Assembly: GCA_963726455.1 (NCBI GenBank) | Contig: CAVSCK010000004.1 | Coordinates: 1,024,001-1,088,000, forward strand | Direction of reading: 5' to 3' | Length of the DNA: 64,000 bases | Source: an uncultured bacterium | Lineage (GTDB): Bacteria; Zixibacteria; MSB-5A5; CAIYYT01 | Part shown: positions 15,532-30,372 of the stretch, piece by piece | How the letters are laid out: each line of letters opens with the position of its first letter | How positions within the stretch are numbered: the first letter of the stretch is position 1 | Notes under the pieces: model-generated | The model's input: only the letters and a program-made list of their open reading frames with translations | What the model was told of the DNA's origin: nothing | Databases searched by the model: none | Program-made: the position numbers and the translations under genes

Positions 15532-15929
15532 GTGTGACCTCCGAAAATTAGTTAATACGGTTGTTCGAGATTTCGTTTTCAAGGGATTATGAAAAGCTAA
15601 TTGACCTCGCTTGATGTCTGAGCGGTCCCCAATCATTCTCCGAACATTCGGAGCGTTCCCGTCGTCCCTTACTGAAAGCACATTTCAGTCCGACGTCGAC
15701 GCATTGCTGCCGTTACCGGTCGTCGGGATACGACTACCGGGCAGACCCCTGTGATGCTGTGAAAAGCGAAGTTGTGGTGATCTCAGGTCTGCGACTTCCA
15801 AGAAGCCGGACTCGTAATCAAAATCACCCAAGCTCTGATTTTCTGATTTACGCAATTAACCTAAGTAATGAACGTCTGTTTGTCAACCTATTTTGCCATG
15901 TTCTGGAAGATTATCTGCTAGAATTGAAG

Positions 15930-15947
15930 AAAGCCGGTGAAGGGACT
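15930..15947 (+). repeat. att site (displaced 3' end of tRNA-Thr)
   Basis: Identical to 30244-30261. Confidence 0.92.
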
Positions 15948-16026
15948 GCACACATTAATGCACTTTCAATTCCCCTGTCGATCAAAATAGTTTCGAAAAG
16001 GCGAATAGCGTAGTATCGTCGCGCTG

Positions 16027-16572
16027 ATGATAGTGCGAACACGACAGCGACCGCAAAATGAGCCTGAGCGGCCGTGGATACTGGCTACTCACAAAGGCGA
16101 TTACGGAAAGTTGCTTCTCGCAGCGCGGCCATTCCAGAAGTCACTTTGTATAGTCCGGCCCGCCATCAAGAGGACGTCACCAAGAATTTCCTATGAGCCG
16201 CTCTATTTCGATTATGTCTTCCTGAGAGCATTGTCGGGCAGCCTGTTTGTCACGATCAAACACCTTCCGGTAAAGGTAGTCTGCTTGGGCGACAAGACTC
16301 TGTCGATCACACAGGCGGAAATGGATAAGATCACTGAGATTACTCGGACTCTCGCCTATCAAGCCGCTCACCCACCGGGGGCGCAAGAATTTGTACAGGA
16401 ACACAAGGGCAAGCAGGTCACCATCACCGGCGGCTCGGCGTGCGGAATGTCCGGTATCGTCGATTCTGAGGCCAGCACGCGGGACGTGTTTGTCAGGATC
16501 GCGGGCCTGCGAATACGGGTGCCGATGGACAGGTTGGATGTTGAGACTGTTGGCGTAACGTCTTCCCCTTGA
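16027..16572 (+). CDS. NusG/RfaH/UpxY-like transcription elongation factor paralogue
   Basis: EPLYFDYVFL (cf. xPLFPGYVF of the NGN domain) and KOW-like GKQVTITGGSACGMSGIV. Confidence 0.65.
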   Translation: MIVRTRQRPQNEPERPWILATHKGDYGKLLLAARPFQKSLCIVRPAIKRTSPRISYEPLYFDYVFLRALSGSLFVTIKHLPVKVVCLGDKTLSITQAEMDKITEITRTLAYQAAHPPGAQEFVQEHKGKQVTITGGSACGMSGIVDSEASTRDVFVRIAGLRIRVPMDRLDVETVGVTSSP

Positions 16573-17016
16573 GCCTTCTGCCGCTTCTCTACGATTATGC
16601 CCTTATTGATGTACCCGTTGTTTCTGAACGATTCTTCGCCTTTTTAGGTGTCAACTTTGTCAAATTTGCGATACGCTTGTCTCTGTTACTTCTCTGCTTA
16701 TCAGTGCTCATGTCGAATTATCCGGGGCGTCCGGCAGTTGTCCGATGGAATCGGACGACTTACACAAATTCCCCGCGAATCATTGTTAATTCGTTGTTCT
16801 CAATGCCTTCCTGAAGGCGGCATTTTCCCCACCAAAACAACAGCATAGCATTGACATTTATCTCTCCTAGCCTGATATTGAGGTCACGTTCACGAAGTAG
16901 AGCACAAATCTAATTGCAGTCTGGAAGCTGATCACGTCCAGGCGCAACTCCTCTGAGTGCGCAGAGTGTCCTGCTGGAACCTCAGCCGCAAAGACCGAAG
17001 GGAGACAATAAAAATC

Positions 17017-17562
17017 ATGTTGGGAAAGATACTGATTGCGGCGGTATTGACGTTTTGGCTGCCAGCCGTCGGCGGGAATCTCACAGTCACGGTGGATACT
17101 GGCATGGCCTTGAACGGCGGCTTATCCAGCCTAAACTTTCATAGCCGACTCAGCGTGTTGAAGATCGTAATTAATGATGATGCTTGCCCTGCCCAATTGA
17201 CAGAAGCGGGCCTGTGGCCGAACAACAATAAGGTTGACTTTCTGTTCTCGACCACCGGCAAACTAACTTCACTGGATAGCATCGATGCTGTTGACATCAC
17301 ATTCCTCGCCTATGATTATTTTGACCGTGCTATACTGAGATTCGCGACGCCAGAAGCATTCTCCCTGTCGCCCGGTAAGGAGATGGATATTGGCAAGCTA
17401 ATGGGGCAAGTCGTCAACGAACGTCAAAGAAGACTATTATTCAAGTCTGTCACCTTTGTTTCTGCAATCAGAAGAAAGGACGGAAGCCTTTGGTTCGCAG
17501 ACGAATCAGCAATCATTGCGCTCGTCAAATCGCTGAATCTCGAATTTCCAACGCAAAACTAA
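17017..17562 (+). CDS. Hypothetical secreted protein
   Basis: RBS gaagggag; signal-peptide-like MLGKILIAAVLTFWLPAVGG. Confidence 0.6.
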   Translation: MLGKILIAAVLTFWLPAVGGNLTVTVDTGMALNGGLSSLNFHSRLSVLKIVINDDACPAQLTEAGLWPNNNKVDFLFSTTGKLTSLDSIDAVDITFLAYDYFDRAILRFATPEAFSLSPGKEMDIGKLMGQVVNERQRRLLFKSVTFVSAIRRKDGSLWFADESAIIALVKSLNLEFPTQN

Positions 17563-17578
17563 AATTGGAGAATCAATC

Positions 17579-17959
17579 ATGTTCAAGAGATTTTCGCTGA
17601 TCAGTCTTGTCGCAATTCTGTCATTGTTGTTCGCCTGCACCGGCAAACAAGGGCCGACGGGGCCGCAAGGTGATAAGGGCGATCCGGGCGATCCGGGGAC
17701 GGGAACTCGAATTGTCTATCAAAGTACCGCACCCGCAAACAGCCAGCAGTTTGTCGTGATGATCCCAGAGATTGACACCCACGATATGCCGTCAGTCACC
17801 GCGTATACCGCCACGACAACTTATCCGAACTCTTGGTTTCCAATTCCGTTGTATGTTTCTGGCGGGCCGGACTTGGGCGCATGTTTCATCGTTGAAACCG
17901 GAAAGGTTACGCTCGTGAATTGCAGCGGCCTTCTCTACAAGATTGTCATTGTGATCTGA
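17579..17959 (+). CDS. Small lipoprotein with collagen-like Gly-X-Y repeat
   Basis: Lipobox LFAC followed by GKQGPTGPQGDKGDPGDPG. Confidence 0.75.
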   Translation: MFKRFSLISLVAILSLLFACTGKQGPTGPQGDKGDPGDPGTGTRIVYQSTAPANSQQFVVMIPEIDTHDMPSVTAYTATTTYPNSWFPIPLYVSGGPDLGACFIVETGKVTLVNCSGLLYKIVIVI

Positions 17960-18108
17960 TGCGCGTTTGCCGGTGATCCTGGAGGTCAATACTGACTTGA
18001 CGATGGAAATGAGTTGCCCCTTGCCCGGCGGAAGACTCTGAAAATAAATAAAGAAAACTAAAGGTTTTTAGTTGCGTCGCCGATGACATTTGCGTATATT
18101 GGGTGAGA

Positions 18109-18291
18109 ATGAAAACAGGCACAACCGCGAAATCAGATCGGCAGCTTATCAACTTCGAGATTGAACCAGAGCTGAAGGCACGTCTTGAAACTCAGGCCAA
18201 GAGGGAGCATCGCACTCTCAGCGGTCTAGTAAAGCATATCATTCTGTCGTACTTGGAGTCTCGGGAAAGCGAGAAGAAACGTAGCAGATAA
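18109..18291 (+). CDS. Ribbon-helix-helix (Arc/CopG-like) DNA-binding protein
   Basis: INFEIEPELKARLETQAKREHRTLSGLVKHII pattern. Confidence 0.75.
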   Translation: MKTGTTAKSDRQLINFEIEPELKARLETQAKREHRTLSGLVKHIILSYLESRESEKKRSR

Positions 18292-18379
18292 GTAAACGGC
18301 GATGCAGACCAGGCACGGTCTACACCGCCTTTGAGAGGCTCAAATGAGCCAGTACACAGTATAACTTGAGAGGTATCAA

Positions 18380-18757
18380 ATGACAACCCGCAAATCTACA
18401 ATCCCCGCCAACGGTCACAAAGACTCGAACCCGTTCCTTACCGATGAAGAGCAGAGACAAGCTATCAGTGGCCTCCAACTCGCTTCATTTGGTCTCGAAG
18501 AGGCAGCGAAATTTGAGAAGCTGGTGGAAGACAGGAGGCGCAATCCCAACTGGCAAAAGGAATTCAAACCCGCTCCCACCCAGCCGTCAAATAGAGAGCT
18601 CCGCAAGTTTCTCAGAGGGAATGAGAGACGTCGTTTCGACGGGGCTATCTCGAAGATGGATTCAGCGATAAGACTGATGAGGGGCAGCAGCGGTCTCCTG
18701 TCGCAATACAGGGAACTCGCCACTAAGAGAATGAATCAGGCCGGAGGCGCGCTGTGA
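18380..18757 (+). CDS. Hypothetical protein
   Basis: RBS gagagg; stop overlaps the recombinase start (GTGA). Confidence 0.55.
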   Translation: MTTRKSTIPANGHKDSNPFLTDEEQRQAISGLQLASFGLEEAAKFEKLVEDRRRNPNWQKEFKPAPTQPSNRELRKFLRGNERRRFDGAISKMDSAIRLMRGSSGLLSQYRELATKRMNQAGGAL

Positions 18758-19695
18758 ATTCAAGTATTACTCAGACCACTCTGCCGAGCACTAACAGTGT
18801 CGGCTTTCAGCAGCTTATCGATGCTTTTCTGTCCCGCCGAAGTCGAGAGACTCGGCGGGCTTACTCAAAGGACTTGGCCGACTTCGCGACGTATCTTGAA
18901 GTCGCTGACAATGAAACTGCCCTACTGCGGCTCGTGTCCAGTGGCCAAGGACAAGCGAATTCGATGGTCATGGGTTACAAGACGGCGCTGATCGAAGGCG
19001 GCAAATCGCCGAACACGGTCAACCGCCGACTGGCAACCTTGCGCTCGGCCGTCAAGTTAGCAATCACGCTCGGACTTGTGAACTGGACAATAAGCATCGA
19101 AAACGAGCGAGTCGAAGCCTATCGGGACACGACCGGGCCAGGCATTGAGGGATTCAGGAAACTACTCAGGTATTCGGCTCTTTCGGCACCGCCCTTTATG
19201 GGATCTCGGAATACCGCAATTCTGCGGTTATTGTTCGACCTGGCGCTTCGGCGCGGAGAAGTTGCCCAACTCGACTTGGCCGACTTGGACATCGACAACG
19301 GCACTATTCAGGTCATTGGCAAAGGTCGGAGCCAGAAAGCCACTCTGACACTGCCAGCGGCAACATGCGGGGCTTTGAGAGCTTGGCTCATGGTCAGAGG
19401 CGCCCAACCGGGGCCGCTGTTTAGGAACTTTGACCGGGCGCGCAAAGGCAACCGGCTGACCGACGGTGGAATTTACCGGATGGTGCGAAACCTGGGGCGC
19501 AAGATCGGTTTGGTAGTCCGACCTCACGGCTTGCGCCATGCCGCGATCACAAAGGCGCTTGACCTCACCGGCGGCAACGTCCGTAGCGTGCAAAAGTTCT
19601 CCCGACACCGGAACATGCAGACCTTAATGGTCTATGACGACAACAGACAGAATCTCGCCGGTACAGTCTCAAATCTGATTGCCGAGGCGGTTTAA
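18754..19695 (+). CDS. Tyrosine recombinase (XerC-like, no arm-binding domain)
   Basis: SAM-like N-terminus; catalytic R (LRRGEV), K (GKG), HGLRH, SRH...Y (LMVYDD). Confidence 0.92.
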   Translation: MNSSITQTTLPSTNSVGFQQLIDAFLSRRSRETRRAYSKDLADFATYLEVADNETALLRLVSSGQGQANSMVMGYKTALIEGGKSPNTVNRRLATLRSAVKLAITLGLVNWTISIENERVEAYRDTTGPGIEGFRKLLRYSALSAPPFMGSRNTAILRLLFDLALRRGEVAQLDLADLDIDNGTIQVIGKGRSQKATLTLPAATCGALRAWLMVRGAQPGPLFRNFDRARKGNRLTDGGIYRMVRNLGRKIGLVVRPHGLRHAAITKALDLTGGNVRSVQKFSRHRNMQTLMVYDDNRQNLAGTVSNLIAEAV

Positions 19696-19760
19696 ATTCG
19701 GTAGAATATGAGCACGGAAACCATCATTATCAGGCTCATATTCAGCCGGGGAAGTGAACT

Positions 19761-19994
19761 ATGAGTAGCGTTTACATGACCACAGCACAAGCCGCCGAGC
19801 GCCTGCAATACAGTTATAGCCACTTCGTGAGGGTCTTATTGCCAAAGTTGCCGGGCGTCATCAGAAATGGCAAGAATGGCGCTTATCGAATTCCCGTCGC
19901 GTCGTTGGTCGAATTTGAACGAAAGCATTTGGTCACTCACAACCCGGATTCGAAACCAGCAGCCTTTCGAGGGGGCACTGAGCAGAAGGAATAA
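19761..19994 (+). CDS. Helix-turn-helix (excisionase/MerR-like) protein
   Basis: YMTTAQAAERL...GAYRIPVASLVEF. Confidence 0.7.
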   Translation: MSSVYMTTAQAAERLQYSYSHFVRVLLPKLPGVIRNGKNGAYRIPVASLVEFERKHLVTHNPDSKPAAFRGGTEQKE

Positions 19995-20020
19995 TCAAGA
20001 GACATTCAAGTGGCTCAATA

Positions 20021-21400
20021 TTAGCTCCCAGCATTGGGTGACCTGAGAATTCTCTCCAGCTTCCGCCTGCTGATCCCCAACGCCCTCATAGTCGCACTCT
20101 TGTTGCCGTTATTCTTTTCCATGACAGCCGTCACAAAACGCTGTTCGAGCGTCACGATCGGCCAATTAGTATCAGCAACAAAACGGTGTGTGGGAGCGAT
20201 CTTATTGGGCTCGGCGATGGTTTGAGTCCCTTCAAAATTCATTGCCCACTTGGAACCGTATCTTCGAAAGAAATCGAGGGGACTTTCATCCGGGATATAA
20301 GTATCGAGCGGATTCTCGTGAATCTTTCGTTTGGCCGCTTTGATGAGGAACTTCTCTGCGAGCAGACGATAATCCTTCTCGCCAAAAGCGAGTATTGTTT
20401 CTCTACTCCACGCCCACTTCTTGAGTGTGCTCCGGTCAATGAACGAAAGTTGCCATCGGAAGGGATTCAGTCCAGCGAAACTTATGTCGGCCGCAAGCCA
20501 TCTTTCGGAGAAATACTCCCCCCCGAAGTAAGTGTCGGCATCGAGAAACCAACTGTAATTTCCTCGCCAGTGCTTCCACATAGGATGAGACCAGCGATGC
20601 CTATCGATACAGATATATCTCAGTACTTCATTCTTCAACTGCCGCACGTTGCCCTCCCATTCGTTCATCAGAAGTATGTGGACCAGAGCAGCCGGAAATA
20701 GGTCTATTCTTGCGATCTTCTCGTCGGCGCAAAATTCGTCGCAGAAATGCAGGAATAACTCTACCGCGTCAAGTCTTCTGTTTCTAAGGGGTTCCACTTC
20801 TATCTTCAATGGAAATCGCCAATACAGATCAGGACGGATTCCATATCTCCAGTCGTCTTCATTATTTCCTGTGGTGACACCACCACCGGCGTTCTTGACC
20901 GGCCGATTTGTTGCCGCAATGATTCGGCAATCAGACTTCTTGATTTCTGGAGACCCGAGTTTGTGGTATTCGCCCGACTCTATGAAACGGAGGATTTCTC
21001 CCTGAACCGACGAATCCAATCCGCCTATTTCATCGATAAAAAGAGTGCCTCCATTCGCCTCGAATACGAGGCCTTCCCTGTTCTCGGCACCAGTGTAAGC
21101 CCCTTTCTTGCATCCGAAAATCTGGCCGTGCGCCAACTGAGGATTTCCCTGAAAGTCGTACGAATTTACCGGCAGAATTCTTCCGCCTCGATTTCGGTCA
21201 CTCTTCTCATGCAAAAGATGCGCGACAACTTCTTTGCCAACACCCGACTCCCCCACGATCAGCACCGGCTCCCGCCGCGGAGCGTAAAGCTCGACATCGC
21301 CGCGCACTTGAGTCGTCGGTCCACTGCTACCGATCATCTTCTGTCTGGATACTTGGGTTTTCTCGGGTTGAACCGTCACTTCATTATGTGCGTTTTGCAT
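20021..21400 (-). CDS. Sigma-54 enhancer-binding AAA+ protein lacking an N-terminal regulatory domain
   Basis: GESGVGKE, FGCKKGAYTGA, TLFIDEIG, RIIAATN, WEGNVRQLKN; Trp-rich insertion; Fis HTH NGNKSATMRALGISRRKL. Confidence 0.88.
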   Translation of the reverse strand: MQNAHNEVTVQPEKTQVSRQKMIGSSGPTTQVRGDVELYAPRREPVLIVGESGVGKEVVAHLLHEKSDRNRGGRILPVNSYDFQGNPQLAHGQIFGCKKGAYTGAENREGLVFEANGGTLFIDEIGGLDSSVQGEILRFIESGEYHKLGSPEIKKSDCRIIAATNRPVKNAGGGVTTGNNEDDWRYGIRPDLYWRFPLKIEVEPLRNRRLDAVELFLHFCDEFCADEKIARIDLFPAALVHILLMNEWEGNVRQLKNEVLRYICIDRHRWSHPMWKHWRGNYSWFLDADTYFGGEYFSERWLAADISFAGLNPFRWQLSFIDRSTLKKWAWSRETILAFGEKDYRLLAEKFLIKAAKRKIHENPLDTYIPDESPLDFFRRYGSKWAMNFEGTQTIAEPNKIAPTHRFVADTNWPIVTLEQRFVTAVMEKNNGNKSATMRALGISRRKLERILRSPNAGS

Positions 21401-21500
21401 AATATGGTTCCTTTAGCTTAAGCATTTCGCTAAGGCCAAGCTAACACAAGTTAATAATAACGCAATCACTTTCTTCCAGACATCAGCATAATCCTTTGCA

Positions 21501-21513
21501 CATCAAGCAGTTA
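21501..21513 (+). promoter_or_regulatory. IHF-binding-like site
   Basis: CATCAAGCAGTTA vs WATCAANNNNTTR, just upstream of the -24 box. Confidence 0.45.
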
Positions 21514-21531
21514 TTTACGCGCCTTCCGGTT

Positions 21532-21547
21532 TGGCTCGGCTCTTGCT
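21532..21547 (+). promoter_or_regulatory. Sigma-54 (-24/-12) promoter of the element's main rightward operon
   Basis: TGGCTCG-GCTC-TTGCT, one mismatch to TGGCACG-N4-TTGCW. Confidence 0.75.
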
Positions 21548-21583
21548 ATACATACGGGAATGAAGCGATCCAAAGGAGATAAG

Positions 21584-21796
21584 ATGAATCAGTTTCGCTT
21601 GAAAAGAGTGCGGCTGGGGTTGACCCAGTACGACCTGTGGAGGGAGACCGGCATACCGCAATCTCGGATTTCGCTACTCGAACGCGGCTTCTACGAATTG
21701 AAGCCAGACGAAGACGAGAGGCTGAGATCGGTGTTGAAGATGCGCCCTCGGACTCCCAAAAATGACAAAACATCACTTGGCGCAACGGCTGCGTGA
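21584..21796 (+). CDS. XRE/Cro-like HTH protein
   Basis: RVRLGLTQYDLWRETGIPQSRISLLERG; RBS aaggag before ATG 21584. Confidence 0.85.
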   Translation: MNQFRLKRVRLGLTQYDLWRETGIPQSRISLLERGFYELKPDEDERLRSVLKMRPRTPKNDKTSLGATAA

Positions 21797-22002
21797 ACTT
21801 GAGGAACCCAGTGCCGCGACAAAGGCCACAGACGAAAGTGAATGTCAACCTCGGGACACCTAACCCAGACGGCCTTGCTCTGCTTGTCAACTTCGTTTCG
21901 ACCCGACTCGTGGTATCGATTCTCCAAAGTAACCAAGAACACAACCAAGAGGGCGACACCGTTGGGAGCCCTTCACCGGAAAGGAGTTCACAACGTGTGT
22001 AG
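21793..22002 (+). CDS. Small hypothetical protein
   Basis: GTGA overlap with the HTH gene, operon-like packing. Confidence 0.35.
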   Translation: MNLRNPVPRQRPQTKVNVNLGTPNPDGLALLVNFVSTRLVVSILQSNQEHNQEGDTVGSPSPERSSQRV

Positions 22003-22213
22003 CAAACTCGATTCGTTCAAAGAGTTTGTCCTCCGAGGTCACAAGTTAATCAGCGAGGGACAGGCCGACAAAGCTTTGTCTCTTGCATTCTGTCTACTCG
22101 ACAGCTTGGGCAATGTGGCGTTTCGCGAACAGGAACCTAAGAGAGCGTGCGTTTCCAAAAGCGTGCAGCCTTCGAATTCGAAACGAATTAACCAAATACA
22201 AAGGAAGAGGTAA
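21995..22213 (+). CDS. Small hypothetical protein
   Basis: RBS aaggag at 21981, GTG start. Confidence 0.45.
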   Translation: MCSKLDSFKEFVLRGHKLISEGQADKALSLAFCLLDSLGNVAFREQEPKRACVSKSVQPSNSKRINQIQRKR

Positions 22214-22217
22214 AACG

Positions 22218-22667
22218 ATGACAGGCGAGATCAAGGTACTCGGACAAAAGCCAGTTCAAGTCAGCTTGGCAGGACAGGAATTCACCATCTATCCGGCGAC
22301 ACACTATCGGATGAATCAGATCCTTGAGTGCGCCGCAACGGCGAGAGCAAATTCGGAAGCCATGCGCAAAGCAGAGGAGACCGAAGATGCGGCAATCAAA
22401 GCGCGGGGCGAAGAAATCCCCATCAGACCACTCAAGTCGACGCCGGTCGATTACGGAATTCTCCGGCTTATCTGCAAGGCTCCAGACACTTTCGAGAACA
22501 GCAAATTGGTTGAAGGCAAGGTTCCCGCTGTACTGACCAACGAATTCTGGAGCCAGCAAGTCCAGACGGCGGAAATAGCGGGCTTATTCGAGGTCTTTGT
22601 GTCCCTGCTTGACATCGACAAGCTCATTAAGAACGCTCTCTCACTCGTGGGACAGACCCGTGTGTAG
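22218..22667 (+). CDS. Putative tail assembly chaperone-like protein
   Basis: 149 aa with N-terminal VSLAGQEFTIYP strands then helices; directly upstream of the tape-measure-like gene (positional inference). Confidence 0.45.
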   Translation: MTGEIKVLGQKPVQVSLAGQEFTIYPATHYRMNQILECAATARANSEAMRKAEETEDAAIKARGEEIPIRPLKSTPVDYGILRLICKAPDTFENSKLVEGKVPAVLTNEFWSQQVQTAEIAGLFEVFVSLLDIDKLIKNALSLVGQTRV

Positions 22668-22715
22668 CCCCATGACAGAAGATGACTCGGATTTTCCAAA
22701 AAACTTGGAGCGTAA

Positions 22716-25504
22716 ATGCCCGGTGTAGTTGACATCCTGAAATATGTGTTGGAGCTGGACTCCGGCCAACTCAAAGCCGAAGCGAAACAATCCGACACAA
22801 TAATCAACCAGTTGTCAGGCACAATCAAGGGCGCGCTTGTTGGCGCATTGGGTGCCGCCGCTGTTGGTTTCGCTACGGTCAAGATCGGCGAATTTCTGAA
22901 AGATGCCACCCTGACGGCGGCACGTACCGAAGTGTTGGGAACTGTCTTGCATCAGGTCGGCAAGGTGGCGGGTGAATCAAGCGGATATCTTGACGGCTTA
23001 GCCGACAAGGTTGAGGCGCTAGGGGTCACTACCCAAGCAAGTCGCACTCTGCTTATTCGACTGATGCAGTCTCATCTTGACCTTGCCTATGCCGTGAAGA
23101 TTGCGACAGTTGCGCAAGACTTAGCCGTAGTCGCTGATCAGAATTCCTCTGAGGCCGCCGAAGGAATTACGATAGCAATTGCCAAAACCGATGTTGAGCT
23201 GTTGCGGCAATATGGTATCGTCATTAACGCAGAGCGACTATTCAAACAGTACGCCCAGACAATCAATAAATCAGCGTCCGAACTTTCCGATCTCGACCGT
23301 CGCACGGCGATTGCTAACGAGGTATTTCGCCAAGGGGCTGCCTCCGCTGGTACTTACGAAGCGGCAATGGCTGATGTCGGCAAGCAGATAACATCAATGC
23401 CTCGATACGTCGAGGAGATGAAGAACGCTCTCGGAAAGGGGTTTCTCCCCCTGCTCGCTGACATTGTGCATTTACTTCGCGACGCCACAGTCGGCCTTAC
23501 CGATTTTCTGACACCGGCGACAGAACTAAAAACAGCCGAACTAAACAAACTACAGTCAGAATTTAGCAAGATCACTGGAATCTTACCTGACTTGGTAAAG
23601 GAATTTGTAAATCTATCCACCAAGACAAGACTCACCAACACCGAACAAGATCGGCTCCTTACCATTCAGCAACAGATCGCCGCGCTCGCTCCCGGCTATA
23701 TCACAGCACTCAACGATGAGGGTATGGCGCTCGACCTTAACGCCAAATCCTTAGCCAACTACACCGGATTGCGCAAGGAACAGATTGAAACTATTAAGAA
23801 TGATCTGATTTCAGCACTGTTAGCGGAGGAGGAGGCACAAGATCGCGCCAACAAGAAGAACCTTGCTGCGATTGAGAATTTCAAGAAGATAGCCGCTTCG
23901 AACAAAGCTGCTGGTGTTAAGGTTGGCTATGGCATCCCAGGCCAAATCAATGAGATAGTGATCGAATTGTCGAAGGGCATCCAGCGCTCACTTGAATTAC
24001 AACAGCGCATCGCGGCACTTGGAAGCGAGGGGAGGATGCTGCCAAGAAAATTGAGAAGATACCAGAAGACCTGAAAATCGAGATCAAATTCGGCAGCGAG
24101 AACTTGTCCTCCGCCGAGGAGCAGATAAAGCGCATTCAGTCATTAGTCGAGGCGGTTCAATCCCAATTCGGCGACCAAGGGATTACGCCCGATAGCGACA
24201 AGTTGATTGCGGCATTGCGGTCACTTATCAATTCGGAAGCGGCGATGCTTTCGACCGATGCCCAGAGGATTATCATTGACGCACTCAACAAGGCGCGGGA
24301 CAACCAACGCAGTGATGCTAAGTCGAAATCCGATCAGGAGCGATATTACAAGGACATACAGGAGAGCGAAGCCAATGCAGCGAAAGATCGCCTCAATGAC
24401 ATAGAAAAGGAAAAGCGGGCGCGTGTAAATGCAGCCGTCGATGTCGCTGACGCCCTTGGTTATGCCGCTACCAATTTCTTTGGTCTCTTCGATGAAGGTA
24501 TTGCCCGAATCGCCTCGAATCTCAGTAACGCGATCAGTGGCGCAATTTCTGGATTCTCACAAGGCGGAGTTGCCGGGATTGCCGGAGCTATCGGCTCGAT
24601 TCTTTCAGGATTCGCTTCCCTTTTCAGCGGTGGAGCGGACAAGATTGTCGTGTCGCAATACGAATTGATCGAAGCCATCGAAAATTGGGAGTCTACCATT
24701 GAGACATTGACGCCAAAAGAAAAAACCGCGCAACAAGAGATGGCCGAACTCGGTATTGAGGCGGCCAGCAGATTAATGGGCAACGGTTGGGACTGGAATC
24801 AGATTGTGGCACTGCTCAGACCCCTATTTGAATCTGTCGGGTTATCCATTCCACAAGGCATTACATATGAGCAATTTCTTGGTTGGGGAAATGACATCAT
24901 CGCGGACATTGGCGCATCAAATGCACAAACGACCGCTGAATTGAAAGCGGATAATGCCGCGTCGCGCAGGGAACTTGTTCTGAGTCAAAAGACGGGAACT
25001 GACGCGCTTGAGACCATCGCCGATCTTGATAAACTCTATGCCTTGAGCCCCGAGGAATTGCATGCTCTCTATGAAGAAACGATGGCGAAGTTTGGTGACA
25101 AAATGTCAGATAGCGACAGAATCAACACACAGGCATTGATTAACGATTACCACAGAGGAGAGGCTGAGCGAGCGCAGAGCGGGGCCGGAGCCGAGCAGAC
25201 TCAGGCGTCCCGCTCGATTCAGAAAATAACCGAACGCCAGGTCGACTCGCTCATTTCCGCGTTGTCCACCATCGACCTGCACATAACCGAGGGCATACAG
25301 AAATTGCTCGATGGCATCCGCAACACGACTAACAGGACAACCATGAATGCGGCGGCGACTATCGAAGTGGCGGTAATCAACGCGGGTGTAATCAACACGG
25401 GGTCGATCAGAGTAGCGGGATCGATGAGTGGCAATAATGGCGCATCGGCGAATACGAAGCAATTACTTACTGTCGAATCACGCAGCCTAGGTAGGAGGGT
25501 GTAA
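22716..25504 (+). CDS. Phage tail tape-measure-like protein, split by a frameshift near 24030
   Basis: Ala/Gly-rich amphipathic helical segments, ELLRQYGIVI...SELSDLDRRTAIANEVFRQG core, IAGIAGAIGSILSGFASLFSGG segment; second frame open from ~24032 (EDAAKKIEKIPEDL...) into ORF 24104-25504. Confidence 0.72.
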
Positions 25505-25574
25505 GGCATGTCATCGGAAGCAAACACAGCGTGTGCGAGAATCACCGGAGTTGACTGTGTCTAACCGCGCAAAA

Positions 25575-25985
25575 ATGACACCTGAAAAAAGAGAGACGTT
25601 CCTCGCTACGCTTGAGACTACGGGAGGGCAGATAACAAAGGCATGTAAGGCCTGTGCTGTTTCGCGCGACGTAATCTATCGACTTCGCAAAAGTGATGAA
25701 CAATTCGGGAAAGACTTCGAAGCCGCACTCGACAAAGGCATTGACCTGCTCGAAGCGGAATGCAAGCGGCGCGCATTTGAAGGCGTTCCCAAACCCGTGT
25801 TCTATAAAGGCAAAGAGTGCGGGATCATTCAGGAATACTCCGATACACTTGCGATCTTCCTGATGAAGGCTCACCGGTCGAAGTACAAAGAGAAATTCCT
25901 ACTGACTGGTGAAGGCGGCGGCGCAGTCAAAGTCCTCGTTGAATATGTGAACAAACCCAATGGAGTGTATCGTGAAGTGTGTTGA
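25575..25985 (+). CDS. Terminase small subunit-like HTH protein
   Basis: FLATLETTGGQITKACK...EAECKRRAFEGVPKPVFYKG...YSDTLAIFLMKAHRSKYKE pattern of phage TerS-like proteins. Confidence 0.72.
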   Translation: MTPEKRETFLATLETTGGQITKACKACAVSRDVIYRLRKSDEQFGKDFEAALDKGIDLLEAECKRRAFEGVPKPVFYKGKECGIIQEYSDTLAIFLMKAHRSKYKEKFLLTGEGGGAVKVLVEYVNKPNGVYREVC

Positions 25986-26397
25986 CCTCAAGACAGTTTT
26001 CGGACGGAGATACAAGATTGCTGCTGATCCCTCGGCCGGGGCCCGCAACGTCGATCCGTGGTACTGGACTATCCCCTGCCGGCGCGGCGAAATCTATCCC
26101 TATGGCGGCGACTTCCTTTGTGCCTCGGTACGAAATGGGGCGGTTTCCAAGTCGATGCGCTCCTGGCCCGAGCTGACGGTTTTGCAGGACGCCGACGACG
26201 AGACAGTCTTCAAGTTTCACGTCAACAACTTCGAAAAGGTAGCTCAGGCCGTGGGTGCCAAGAAACGGCGGCGAATGTCAGTCGAGACCATGAAGAAAAT
26301 TGGTGCAGACACGGCGTACGTGACGCCAAACGGGGGTGAATTTCAACGATCTCCCCAAGGGGCGAGTGATTTGACACGGGGGGCAGTTCGTGTATGA
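25960..26397 (+). CDS. Hypothetical MGE protein
   Basis: Overlaps both neighbours; DPWYWTIPCRRGEIYPYGG...QDADDE motif; function unknown. Confidence 0.6.
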   Translation: MECIVKCVDLKTVFGRRYKIAADPSAGARNVDPWYWTIPCRRGEIYPYGGDFLCASVRNGAVSKSMRSWPELTVLQDADDETVFKFHVNNFEKVAQAVGAKKRRRMSVETMKKIGADTAYVTPNGGEFQRSPQGASDLTRGAVRV

Positions 26398-27022
26398 TTT
26401 AGACACCCTAAAGGCCGGCGTCACCATCGAGAACATCCTTGACGATTTCGGGATTGCCCACCGCCATCACAGGGCAGCCTGTCCCGTTCACCGTGGCGAC
26501 AATAGGTCTGCTTTCAGCTTCAACGATGAGGCTTTCTACTGCCACACCCAAGGATGCAAGGGCGGCGTTATCGACCTGGTCATGGCTCTGGCCGGGACTG
26601 ATTTCAGGGGCGCGCTGGACTATCTGGCTCGCAAGAAGGGAATCGCGAATGATTTCGGAATCACCGGGACGACTCAGTTTACAAGGAGTCTGCCTGACAA
26701 TTCTGATCCATTCAGGGAAGAAAGGAAACGGCTCTCACCAAAAGACTATGTGGAGTTGCTTTGTATGGCCGACGATCTTAACCGCGCTGAATCCGACCTC
26801 GCCGAATGCAGGAGTAACATTGGCACACTGACCGCCCAATTATCCCAACTTATCCACCTCAAGAGGCGGAAACAGATTGCCAAATCGCTGTACTACTTGA
26901 ACACACAGAAGATCGACGACAACCGGCTCGCACTGTTCGACGAGCAGGAAGCACAACTCAACTACAAGGTCAAAGAGATAAAGCGGCAAATCAGCGAGTT
27001 CAGGAAGAAGGTAAGGCAATGA
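26390..27022 (+). CDS. CHC2 zinc-finger (DnaG zinc-binding domain) protein with C-terminal coiled coil
   Basis: CPVHRGDNRSAFSF...FYCHTQGCKGGVIDLVM...FRGALDYLA. Confidence 0.85.
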   Translation: MYDLDTLKAGVTIENILDDFGIAHRHHRAACPVHRGDNRSAFSFNDEAFYCHTQGCKGGVIDLVMALAGTDFRGALDYLARKKGIANDFGITGTTQFTRSLPDNSDPFREERKRLSPKDYVELLCMADDLNRAESDLAECRSNIGTLTAQLSQLIHLKRRKQIAKSLYYLNTQKIDDNRLALFDEQEAQLNYKVKEIKRQISEFRKKVRQ

Positions 27023-28263
27023 TTAGCGACTGCGAAATTGACGCCGAGTTTTGCCAAGAGACCGACGCTGACATCGACCTGACGATACCCGAATCCGGCT
27101 TTCTCCTGAAATATTACAACCTAATCTGCCCTATCACAGAGGCGCCTGAAGTCTACCATCTGTTTATGGGAATGTCTTTGATCGCCGGTGTCCTCGGGCG
27201 CAAAGTGTTTCTCGACTGGACGGCTTACAAGATTTACCCGAACCTGTATATCATCCTGGTCGGCGCGTCTTCAGCAATCAAGAAATCGACGTCAATCAAC
27301 CAAGCCCGACCGTTTCTTAACGCCGTCGATCCCAACCTGATCTTTCCAAATGAATTCTCGAATGAAGCTTTCTTGGAGCTCCTTGTCACTCAGCCGCAAG
27401 GTTCGCTGTTCTGGGATGAATTCGGCGGCGTGCTCGCGACATTCGAGCGTTCGTACATGTCCGGTACCAAAGAAATGCTGACCTCGATGTTTGACTGTCC
27501 GAGTGACTATCGACGGTTGCTCAAAGGCAACGCCAAGAGCAAAGAGTCGGGCAAGGTCGTTATCATCCGGGAACCGTACATCAATATCGCCACTACTTCA
27601 ACCCTTGAGTGGCTCGTCAATCGGATCAAGGAACAGGATATCAAGTCGGGTTTCCTGGCTCGATTTGTCTACGTGCCCGGTAAAGAGCCGAGCAAACGAC
27701 TTTCGCGCCCGCCCAAATTAGATCAGAAGTTGAGGTCCGAAATCATCATGGAGTTGAAGGCTATTCGAGAGATTTCGGGCGAAGCGGAACTCACTGACGA
27801 CGCGTTTCTGTACTATGACACCTGGTACAACGGTGTCTTTGATCAGATACAGAAGGGCGACAATCGCGACAAGCTCTCCCCTTTCTTTAGCCGGCTACTG
27901 GTCTACGCTCTCAAATTCGCCCTGATCTACCAAGTGTCCGAAGATCACTCGCTGACAATTCAGGAACACAACATGATCAGGGCGTGTCAGTTGGTCGACT
28001 TCCTCAAGCGCAACATCAAAGACATGGTCGAAAATGAACTGGTTTTTGGTGTGGACGCCATTCAGTTGAAGAGAGTGTTGGAAGTCATCAAGTCAGAGGG
28101 TGCGATTGAACGGAGCAAACTTTTCACGCGAGTGAACTATCGAAAAGACATTCTCAACCGACTCATCGATACCCTTCTTGAGCAGGAACAGATTTCGGTT
28201 TCTCGGGAACAGTGGCACAAGGGGAAGAAGCCGAGAACGATTTACACCTATAACGGTAAGTGA
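27019..28263 (+). CDS. DUF3987/YfjI-like P-loop NTPase (replication helicase-like) with C-terminal winged helix
   Basis: PNLYIILVGASSAIKKSTS, WDEFG, SGFLARF motifs. Confidence 0.8.
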   Translation: MISDCEIDAEFCQETDADIDLTIPESGFLLKYYNLICPITEAPEVYHLFMGMSLIAGVLGRKVFLDWTAYKIYPNLYIILVGASSAIKKSTSINQARPFLNAVDPNLIFPNEFSNEAFLELLVTQPQGSLFWDEFGGVLATFERSYMSGTKEMLTSMFDCPSDYRRLLKGNAKSKESGKVVIIREPYINIATTSTLEWLVNRIKEQDIKSGFLARFVYVPGKEPSKRLSRPPKLDQKLRSEIIMELKAIREISGEAELTDDAFLYYDTWYNGVFDQIQKGDNRDKLSPFFSRLLVYALKFALIYQVSEDHSLTIQEHNMIRACQLVDFLKRNIKDMVENELVFGVDAIQLKRVLEVIKSEGAIERSKLFTRVNYRKDILNRLIDTLLEQEQISVSREQWHKGKKPRTIYTYNGK

Positions 28264-28290
28264 CAACCACTTAGGGCGCTTGAAAGGAAA

Positions 28291-28590
28291 TCAAAACTTT
28301 GGTAAATTTAGATAAACTTCGCGAAATGGTATGTTATGCGCAGACAATGAGTTACCATATAACTTCTAAACTACTAACTACTACTACTACTACTACAGGG
28401 GGCGCTGACTCACCTGAAATCAAAGGGAAAAAGAGGGAGAGATGCAAGAAGTTGTCGAAGTTTAGAAGTTTACACCTAAACCCTTTTATCTAATTACGAT
28501 ACCTATTCGCGAACATTTGCGAAGTTTACGACTGCTTCTGTTGCCCACTTGGACTCGGGGAAACAAGTTGCCAAAGACCTTTAGGGCGCA
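28291..28590. other. Putative replication origin (iteron-like repeats)
   Basis: GAAGTTTA/TAAACTTC octamers in both orientations, (CTA)n tract, ttagggcgc repeated at 28271 and 28581; non-coding and directly after the helicase-like gene. Confidence 0.5.
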
Positions 28591-28626
28591 TACTGTGACA
28601 CCGACTACCGAAAGGAATAACAGACG

Positions 28627-30372
28627 ATGAAGTGCGCCGTCTATGCCCGGTACAGCTCCGACATGCAGAAACAGACCAGCATCGAAGATCAGGTGCGGGA
28701 GTGTCGGCAGTTCATCGAGCACAGACAGTGGGAAGTTGCCGACGGCCGGGTGTACTCTGACTACGCCATCAGTGGAGCTGATATCAACCGCACGGGTTAC
28801 CAGGCACTCAAGGCAGACGCATACAAGAAACTGTTTGCCTGCATCGTAGTTGACGACTTATCGCGACTCGGAAGGGACGCCGGAGAAGCAATCCAAATCT
28901 ACGGGGAATTGACTGCCTATGGAGTTAACATCGTCTCTGTGTCGGATGGAATCGAAACGGCTTCATCTTCTTCGAAGATTCCCTACTACTTCAAGAGCAT
29001 TGCCAACGAACTCTTTCTGGATGAACTGAAGGCCAAGATCGTTCGCGGTCTCAAAGGTCAAGTCTCTCGCGGTTACTCTGCCGGCGGCCGGACCTACGGC
29101 TACTACTCCGAGCCGGAACTTGTTCCGGGTGGCGGCGCTGACAAATTCGGCAGACCTCGGCGGCACGGGGTTAAGATCAAAATCAATGAGAAAGAAGCGG
29201 AAGTCGTGCGAATGATCTTCCGACTCCGCGCCGATGGTCTTGGACAACGTGCGATTGCCACTCGCCTGAATGAACTGAAAATCCCTTCCCCATTTGCACA
29301 CGTCGACCACTTTAGCGGAACTTGGTCGCCCGACACGGTACGCCACATGTTGCAACAGCGGAGATATATCGGCGACTGGACTTGGAACAAGAGCCGGTCT
29401 CTCAAGAAGAATCCTCTCGGTAAGCGAATTGTCAGAGAGAAGACAGTCGACCAATGGATTGAACACGTCGACGAATCATTGCGGATCATTCATCAAGATT
29501 TGTGGGACGCTGTACTGGCGACATTTGCAGACAAAGAAACACGATTGCGGTTCACGCCGGGGCCGAAAGGTGTCTATCTCTTGGGTGGGCTGCTTAAGTG
29601 TTCTCGCTGCGGATCGTCACTTGTCGGAATGAAATCGAAAGGATGGACTGCCTATGTGTGCAGCGGCAACAGAAGTAAAGGCAAGGTGTACTGTCCAGCC
29701 TCACACCGACTACCGCTCATCGAGGCTGACTCCGGAGTTCTGCAAGGCTGCAAAGAAATTCTGTTTTCTGATGAAACACTCGCATTGATTTCACGCCAAG
29801 TCAACGAAGCGTTGGCGACTATCGAGAAGCAGACTCCCAAGCGGCGAGATCGCTTAGCGAGAAGACTCAACACTCTTGACACGTCCATTGAGCGCCTACT
29901 TGATTTTGCGGAGACTGAACCGAGTAGTCCTGCTCTTGGTGAACGCCTACGGACTCTGGAAGCGGAAAAGCGCACTGTCCAGGCCGAACTTGATGCACTC
30001 AAAACCGAAACCCGTAGGACTAACCGACTGTCCGAAGAGTTCATCAAGGCCAGTCTGCAAGGGCTCCTACCTGCCGTGAGCGCTGACGAAAGCAGCCGCC
30101 AGGAGCTGAAATTCATCCTCAGCAAGATGTTTCCGGAAAAATTGTCTGTCACGATTCGCGAAAAAAATGGCTATGTTGAGTTTGGCGTGCTTGGTAACCT
30201 AATGCCCCTCAATATCCTTCCGAAGGCTTCTGCGTTAATGTATAAAGCCGGTGAAGGGACTCGAACCCCCGACCAGCTGATTACAAATCAGCTACTCTAC
30301 CAACTGAGTTACACCGGCTTAAGAAATCTGCCTGCCCGTTTCAAGTACCGTCACTCCGACGCGCAGGATTAG
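28627..30372 (+). CDS. Large serine recombinase (integrase)
   Basis: YARYSS catalytic Ser, DDLSRLGRD, recombinase domain, Zn ribbon LLKCSRCGS...YVCSG...YC, coiled coil; 3' end crosses the att repeat and tRNA. Confidence 0.95.
   Translation: MKCAVYARYSSDMQKQTSIEDQVRECRQFIEHRQWEVADGRVYSDYAISGADINRTGYQALKADAYKKLFACIVVDDLSRLGRDAGEAIQIYGELTAYGVNIVSVSDGIETASSSSKIPYYFKSIANELFLDELKAKIVRGLKGQVSRGYSAGGRTYGYYSEPELVPGGGADKFGRPRRHGVKIKINEKEAEVVRMIFRLRADGLGQRAIATRLNELKIPSPFAHVDHFSGTWSPDTVRHMLQQRRYIGDWTWNKSRSLKKNPLGKRIVREKTVDQWIEHVDESLRIIHQDLWDAVLATFADKETRLRFTPGPKGVYLLGGLLKCSRCGSSLVGMKSKGWTAYVCSGNRSKGKVYCPASHRLPLIEADSGVLQGCKEILFSDETLALISRQVNEALATIEKQTPKRRDRLARRLNTLDTSIERLLDFAETEPSSPALGERLRTLEAEKRTVQAELDALKTETRRTNRLSEEFIKASLQGLLPAVSADESSRQELKFILSKMFPEKLSVTIREKNGYVEFGVLGNLMPLNILPKASALMYKAGEGTRTPDQLITNQLLYQLSYTGLRNLPARFKYRHSDAQD
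30246..30318 (-). tRNA. tRNA-Thr (anticodon UGU)
   Basis: Reverse complement GCCGGTGTAACTCAGTTGGTAGAGTAGCTGATTTGTAATCAGCTGGTCGGGGGTTCGAGTCCCTTCACCGGCT folds as a cloverleaf; CCA not encoded. Confidence 0.97.

Follow-up and report, generated by a model that had tools for sequence, protein, structure and literature searches.

An integrated island of an uncultured Zixibacteria bacterium carries a frame-broken tape-measure homologue beside an orphan small terminase gene: a possible phage satellite

A 14.3-kb integrated island (15930-30261) was found in a 64,000-nucleotide (nt) stretch of an uncultured bacterium of the lineage Zixibacteria (contig CAVSCK010000004.1 of assembly GCA_963726455.1, positions 1,024,001 to 1,088,000; the whole stretch is called the window below). 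The island is a discrete, integrated, mobile element that contains three phage-related genes: a homologue of the phage tape-measure protein (TMP) with a broken reading frame, a gene for a 149-amino-acid (aa) protein in the position of a tail assembly chaperone, and a gene for a small terminase (TerS). In our estimate there is roughly an even chance that the island is a phage satellite, with a tail function that is currently disabled or mis-assembled; it is known here as integrated sequence only. Satellites were long thought to remodel heads and packaging only, and tail manipulation by a satellite's own TMP was, as far as the available part of the literature goes, first shown in 2025-2026 and for PLEs only. 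The three genes lie as follows, the TMP homologue being given as two open reading frames (ORFs).

22218..22667, plus strand: 149-aa gene in the tail-assembly-chaperone position, homologous to a 164-aa gene of the viral contig L007
22716..24074, plus strand: first part of the TMP homologue, 452 aa, frame 0 (ORF list, homology)
23996..24072, plus strand: stretch holding the -1 change of the TMP frame (frame limits, alignments of relatives)
24029..25504, plus strand: second part of the TMP homologue, frame 2 (ORF 24104-25504, 466 aa, TTG start)
25533..25985, plus strand: orphan TerS (Sf6/PaMx11-type), 150 aa (phrog_4044, E 2.4e-35)

Single-protein scans of the genome and of viral contigs for TMP relatives gave nothing, and alignment A1 was needed; as a profile of 17 sequences it matched the PDB sequence 8hqo_x, 'Tape measure protein', at E 3.6e-8 and T5 pb2 (7zhj_f) at E 4e-4. 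In addition, tblastn against 50,697 phage records returned 11 weak matches, annotated as tape measure (five), pore-forming tail tip protein (one) or hypothetical (one), with four unannotated. A search among longer proteins yielded 25 matches at E <=0.001 out of 7997 scored candidates. Among these were the single ORFs P0001 (933 aa, 43% identity over 96% of the query) and P0002 (922 aa); the near-length search returned seven proteins, the best at 43% identity, and no split or closer relative among them. The N-terminal domain of the TMP was present in 44 loci, 6 from genomes and 38 from viral contigs, in ORFs of ~700-3000 aa, and the distant relatives carried a phage lysozyme domain or the lambda TMP C-terminal domain. 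A search with profile models had been proposed in the initial annotation as a check on both tail genes. Its outcome was divided: profile A1 matched TMPs of solved structure, while the Pfam family model TMP_2 was not reached (E 0.036, 14.2 bits against a cut-off of 30.2), PF10145 was absent from the entire genome in the Pfam search, and no chaperone family was matched. On these profile matches and on the alignments below, the window gene is a TMP homologue with a broken frame.

The gene neighbourhood was compared with that of L007, in which the TMP orthologue, the closest relative of full length, matches three TMP PHROGs and belongs to a complete structural module of siphovirus-like type. In this viral contig, portal, protease, scaffold, major head and major tail genes lie upstream of an adjacent pair formed by the homologue of the 149-aa gene and the TMP, and a minor-tail-like gene lies downstream of the TMP. 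The window holds the same adjacent pair, so that the upstream neighbour of its TMP is as in the siphovirus tail module of L007; the downstream neighbour is TerS. In L007, major tail and distal tail genes lie on either side of the pair; in the window, a regulator and TerS take these places.

The initial annotation had described a tape-measure-like ORF of ~930 aa if rejoined, and both profile A1 and the alignments with L007 and P0002 bore this out, the rejoined length being ~929 aa. Frame 2 is open from 23996 and frame 0 ends at 24072-24074, which places a single -1 frame change within 23996-24072. The 933-aa frame of L007 is 42% identical to one half over 346 aa and 27% identical to the other over 348 aa, and the alignment of P0002 with the second part (37% identity over 432 aa, E 1e-77) begins 10 codons before the TTG of that part. 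Moreover, neither half contains a stop in the frame assigned to it, against 21-28 stops in the remaining frames. By this homology the two long ORFs are one split gene. In the first part, residues ~52-270 form the conserved N-terminal domain and residues 35-59 a hydrophobic Gly-rich segment; a second such segment lies at residues 179-202 of the second part. Unlike the window TMP, the relatives P0001, P0002 and L007 are single uninterrupted ORFs of 922-933 aa.

Inspection of 23996-24072 by eye showed no canonical slippery heptamer that would allow a programmed -1 shift. The only homopolymers in this stretch are GGGG at 24029-24032 and AAAA at 24047-24050, and an error of the assembly in one of these two runs would leave the TMP intact and the island a fully working satellite, a reading that overlaps with the satellite reading given above. 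The presence of just these two homopolymers in the stretch and the perfectly open state of both halves are consistent with such an artefact, which we nevertheless consider unlikely: the frame statistics are clean genome-wide (83% in frames of at least 200 aa, and 80 frames reaching at least 1000 aa), indicating that the assembly is not indel-ridden and that the break is probably real. The break is also single and probably recent, and both halves are still fully open.

The 149-aa gene stands directly upstream of the TMP, with 48 nt between 22667 and 22716. Its product is 28% identical (E 1e-15) to that of the 164-aa gene of L007, which likewise stands directly upstream of a TMP, and it has nine relatives among 1.84 billion representatives, the best at 68%. 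Alignment A3 of the 149-aa protein gave nothing relevant against PHROGs and PDB sequences, no phage record was matched at E <=1, and a scan of viral contigs with the 149-aa alignment A4 found none. The adjacency in L007 nevertheless identifies the TMP and the 149-aa gene, at the level of gene order and homology, as a phage-derived pair.

The gene that follows the TMP, called TerS-like in the initial annotation, proved to be a genuine TerS homologue. Its match to phrog_4044 (E 2.4e-35) covers residues 1-138 and is the sole match to this PHROG in the genome. It has 140 relatives, many with PF20901, although its own Pfam match (E 0.069) is below the cut-off. Among the phage records, 148 match the TerS at 34-36% identity, and most of the 12 listed among these 148 are annotated terS. 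The window TerS, which forms the first row of the 29-sequence alignment A2, keeps all 16 invariant columns. In 80 metagenome loci with TerS relatives, where the downstream sequence suffices, mostly a 420-670-aa ORF comes directly after TerS; 15 of 16 such ORFs sampled match large terminase (TerL) families in PHROGs, and the sixteenth matches only phrog_2472, which co-occurs with TerL matches in others. In the window, the genes after TerS are a 145-aa ORF and a primase, and TerL is not next to it. Therefore, the TerS is an orphan.

The island is bordered by the two copies of an 18-nt direct repeat (D3), the core of its attachment (att) sites. Both att repeats are intact, and the core has exactly two exact copies in the whole 3.64-Mb genome. 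The other features of the island were assigned as follows; 'family-less' refers to Pfam, PHROGs and NCBIfam, which is also the scope of the family searches reported below for the island.

15930..15947, plus strand: left att core, AAAGCCGGTGAAGGGACT, a displaced copy of the tRNA-Thr 3' end (direct repeat D3)
16027..16572, plus strand: NusG/UpxY-like, antiterminator-like gene, 181 aa (NF033644, E 3.8e-7, far below its cut-off)
16957..18757, plus strand: three family-less ORFs (201, 126 and 125 aa)
18754..19695, plus strand: XerC/D-like tyrosine recombinase (PF00589, 2.6e-20), common to the related islands
19761..19994, plus strand: small HTH_17 (excisionase/AlpA-type) protein (PF12728, E 2.6e-4; TIGR01764, E 0.017)
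20021..21400, minus strand: sigma-54 activator, AAA+ core and HTH_8 (PF00158, 3.2e-38; PF02954)
21532..21547, plus strand: sigma-54-type promoter-like site, TGGCTCGGCTCTTGCT, one mismatch to TGGCAC-N5-TTGCW
21560..21796, plus strand: small XRE/Cro-type HTH gene, repressor-like (PADLOC HTH_VI, E 6.8e-4; likely start ATG 21584)
25960..26397, plus strand: family-less 145-aa ORF, overlapping the end of TerS
26390..27022, plus strand: CHC2 zinc-finger primase-like protein (PF01807, 3.9e-7)
27019..28263, plus strand: DUF3987 primase/helicase-like replication protein (PF13148, 5.3e-13; phrog_14296, 4.9e-30)
28627..30372, plus strand: large serine recombinase (PF00239, PF07508, PF13408)
30244..30261, plus strand: right att core, the second copy, which is the 3' end of tRNA-Thr(TGT)
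30245..30319, minus strand: tRNA-Thr (TGT), the integration target (ARAGORN; Rfam 70.1 bits)

Five island ORFs had no family match at all, and the 126-aa ORF contains a short collagen-like stretch. As the initial annotation had stated, no capsid, portal, TerL, tube or baseplate gene is recognisable: none of these families was matched by any island ORF. The cargo and replication genes form one compact plus-strand row, with gaps of 48 and 28 nt and overlaps of 26, 8 and 4 nt. Upstream of this row stands the XRE repressor-like gene, adjoined by the divergent sigma-54 activator, which is without an N-terminal sensor domain (its PF00158 match starts at residue 22). The score of the HTH_17 protein with PF12728 was 21.7 bits, below the cut-off of 27. 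The site at 21532..21547 is one of four in 64 kb with at most one mismatch to TGGCAC-N5-TTGCW and is weakly indicated as a candidate sigma-54 promoter; a simple scan for sigma-70 promoters and terminators gave a result at chance level.

An integrase, regulators, replication genes of its own, an orphan TerS, no recognised head or tube genes, intact att repeats and a size of 14 kb together give the island the gene logic of a satellite. In the proposed mechanism, infection by or induction of a helper siphovirus would lead to excision and replication of the island, and the island TerS would direct the helper's TerL to island DNA. The island TMP and its 149-aa partner would replace those of the helper and, with the helper's tube and tip proteins, would form satellite-specific chimeric tails, as for PLEs. 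The initial annotation had likewise proposed a satellite with its own TMP and TerS. The discrete island and its gene content speak for that proposal; the broken TMP and the failure to find a helper do not.

A number of findings weigh against the satellite reading, beginning with the tail genes. If the assembly is correct, the broken frame of the TMP means that the tail part is presently disabled. Lambda-type tail chaperones (gpG/gpGT) make a longer second product by a programmed frameshift. The 149-aa gene has no such frameshift extension, with no open alternative frame beyond its stop and 24-26 stops in the other two frames across the TMP start, and its product matches no chaperone family in Pfam, PHROG or NCBIfam. 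The chaperone call therefore follows from conserved position and pairing with the TMP alone, so that of the claim made in the initial annotation the place of the gene and its L007 pairing stood, but no chaperone family or frameshift extension came with them; the gene is at best weakly indicated as a candidate tail assembly chaperone. No single phage could be traced as the source of both TerS and TMP, which suggests a mixed origin: the ORF of L007 in the TerS position is unrelated to the window TerS. The SatelliteFinder PICI model, in the available part of its description, comprises integrase, regulator, primase-replicase and TerS; all of these are present in the island, the regulator being the AlpA/excisionase-like protein below cut-off together with the XRE HTH protein. 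According to the same part, however, tail genes are 'forbidden' components of the model, which would reject the island because of its tail gene.

The distribution of the genes and the search for a helper add to these points. Homologues of TerS, TMP and the 149-aa protein are absent from L145 and L146, the two related islands with readable cargo. Of the class's 284 other genomes, two hold the TMP domain (31% and 21% identity), and four gave phrog_4044 matches that were only marginal (E ~3e-4). The 80 metagenome loci with TerS relatives held no other island genes except for one weak tyrosine-recombinase match. Furthermore, PF03237, PF05065, PF03354, PF10145, PF04984 and PF04860 had no match in the genome, and tblastn of the genome with 2153 and 2102 phage-locus ORFs revealed no siphovirus region. 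Thus, no helper siphovirus was found in the genome by Pfam or tblastn.

Several of the same observations would also be expected if the island were an inert mosaic, that is, an element that integrates and replicates itself and in which TerS, TMP and the 149-aa gene are a dead captured phage fragment, the TMP being a pseudogene with no role in transfer. The frameshift of the TMP, the lack of this cargo in L145 and L146, its near-absence from the 284 other class genomes and the failure to trace TerS and TMP to a single phage all fit, as does the order TMP, TerS, primase, which is unlike that of phages or classical PICIs. Against this reading, there is one break in ~929 codons with both TMP halves open, whole genes are retained with short gaps or overlaps in one row with the replication genes, and TerS retains all invariant columns of A2. 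Moreover, the TMP and its 149-aa partner have been retained together, as in L007. We regard the inert mosaic as possible but rather doubtful.

The related islands place the backbone of the element. Of the 284 other class genomes, 4 held DUF3987 homologues. The tyrosine recombinase, primase, DUF3987 protein and serine recombinase of the window island recur in L145, and the first three of them in L146, from another genus; the tyrosine recombinase homologues match at E 8.5e-113 (L145) and 1.6e-99 (L146). By these homologies, the window island belongs to a rare mobile family with a XerC/D-like recombinase and a CHC2-primase/DUF3987 module. No homologue of the sigma-54 activator was present in L145 or L146. 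The cargo of the related islands consists of other proteins without an assigned family (509 aa in L145; 472 and 744 aa in L146). Since the related islands are without them, TerS, TMP and the 149-aa gene are the cargo of this copy alone. The 744-aa protein of L146, which is helical, has a Gly-rich hydrophobic end and stands in the cargo position, was considered as a TMP and rejected (hhalign probability 0.4, no PHROG or PDB match). L146:1760-13887 (genome G004) is a 12.1-kb island with an identical 18-nt core at its own tRNA-Thr(TGT), and there the tyrosine integrase adjoins the tRNA, where the window island has the serine recombinase.

The initial annotation had also offered a defensive role, in which helper tail assembly is poisoned. 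In this case the TMP, or its 452-aa first part, would act with the 149-aa protein to block the tail assembly of an infecting phage, with an outcome like that of Tab or Rta. To our knowledge, the known tail blockers are not TMP homologues, which counts against the proposal. A truncated TMP could conceivably be a dominant-negative partner. Tail assembly is a known target of defence, as described in the available parts of two sources (PMC10884400; PMC12987554). PADLOC nevertheless returned nothing relevant: the island proteins had no defence-specific match, only generic AAA+/HTH, primase-like and coiled-coil LeoBC ones. Moreover, no sequence feature separates poisoning from the satellite or inert readings, and we consider poisoning very improbable.

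The genome does contain phage-like head genes outside the window. A ten-gene, minus-strand, phage-like head cluster lies at C4:993,666-1,007,302 (L129:8666-20000 and L130:1-3302), 33 kb upstream of the island, its TerL being 19 kb upstream of the window. Its order is portal, TerL, 194-aa protein, 615-aa protein, virion structural protein, major head protein, 483-aa protein, Ig-like 279-aa protein, 486-aa protein and 352-aa protein, and it is flanked by dockerin/beta-propeller host genes. Common Pfam models for TerL and capsid miss the cluster; it was found by tblastn and PHROGs (TerL, phrog_2, 1e-30; major head protein, phrog_3922, 1e-63). It contains no recognised integrase, TerS or TMP. Of 285 genomes of the phylum, 255 carry the major head gene, as do 189 of the 198 of good quality, at 53-85% identity, and four genomes from other families show synteny of the cluster. 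From this distribution, it looks like a vertically inherited, domesticated, gene-transfer-agent-like module. The genome has exactly one TerL match, in the head cluster, and one TerS match, in the island, which also holds the only TMP. It is conceivable that the island parasitises or complements the phylum's own domesticated head cluster and not a free phage, in which case a gene-transfer-agent-like particle would owe its packaging specificity and tail length to the island; we hold this reading to be very improbable.

The satellite reading was also set against known satellites. PLEs, according to the available part of their description, have been shown to make chimeric tails using a TMP and a chaperone of their own (PMC12987554, 2026), and EPIP satellites of Mycolicibacterium carry TerS, a serine integrase and a TMP (PMC12822802, preprint, 2025). 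The idea of a satellite tail is therefore not categorically new, as far as the available parts of this printed work show. Like the island, the PLE of Vibrio cholerae is small and integrated, carries a tmp of its own together with a gene where the chaperone would stand, and lacks tube and sheath genes (PMC12987554); for the island, too, tails built from helper parts around its own TMP are proposed. According to the same part, the helper of the PLE is a myovirus, whereas that of the island would be a siphovirus (PMC12987554); the PLE is further set apart by its description in that no baseplate hub gene was seen in the island. Conversely, an orphan TerS, two recombinases and a sigma-54 activator mark out the island, whose TMP is broken and which is known from its genes alone. 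EPIPs resemble the island in size (~11-14 kb) and in having TerS, a serine integrase, an HTH protein and a TMP, but they also encode major capsid, scaffold and head-tail adaptors, none of which was seen in the island, and they have been isolated as particles (PMC12822802), whereas the island is known as integrated sequence.

With PICIs and SaPIs, the island has in common its size, tRNA-type att repeats, integrase, regulators, a primase-replicase module and an orphan TerS that would redirect the helper's TerL. It differs from them in having TerS upstream of the primase, a sigma-54 activator as regulator and a tail gene, and in that no capsid-morphogenesis gene was recognised; by the available part of the SatelliteFinder description, this last gene is also missing in SaPIs. 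As far as tested, the backbone of the island is unrelated to those of PLEs, EPIPs and classical PICIs, PLEs and EPIPs being set apart by description. If the satellite reading is correct, an independent island lineage in another phylum would suggest that tail hijacking evolved more than once, and detection models that forbid tail genes would miss such elements. Sigma-54 control, together with the tRNA-Thr att core that L146 shares, would offer simple handles on excision and induction.

Some further observations concern the borders and the control region of the island. An empty integration site was sought in three same-genus genomes: there, the left flank matched at only 74% over ~125 nt, on contigs not carrying the tRNA-Thr, and no flanking protein matched the small loci. 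The ~125 nt in question (15770-15894), just left of the left att core, are the sole part of the left flank that matches same-genus DNA, and may be a conserved leader or small RNA of the adjoining gene. The serine recombinase ORF crosses the right att core and extends 37 codons into the region of the tRNA-Thr gene. In an excised circle, as read from the sequence, its last codons would be those that follow the left core and would encode another tail, of 22 residues, so that the C-terminus of the recombinase would differ between the integrated and excised states. The island's own sensor-less sigma-54 activator diverges from the sigma-54-like site that fronts the row of phage-derived and replication genes.

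Near the head genes, the short peptide-like motif SPLERG.RGV occurs at L130:1517-1708, in the gap between portal and TerL, and again at L130:4150-6651, within the neighbouring dockerin protein, and may be a small repeated DNA element. The same dockerin protein also carries REGGNPGSF repeats.

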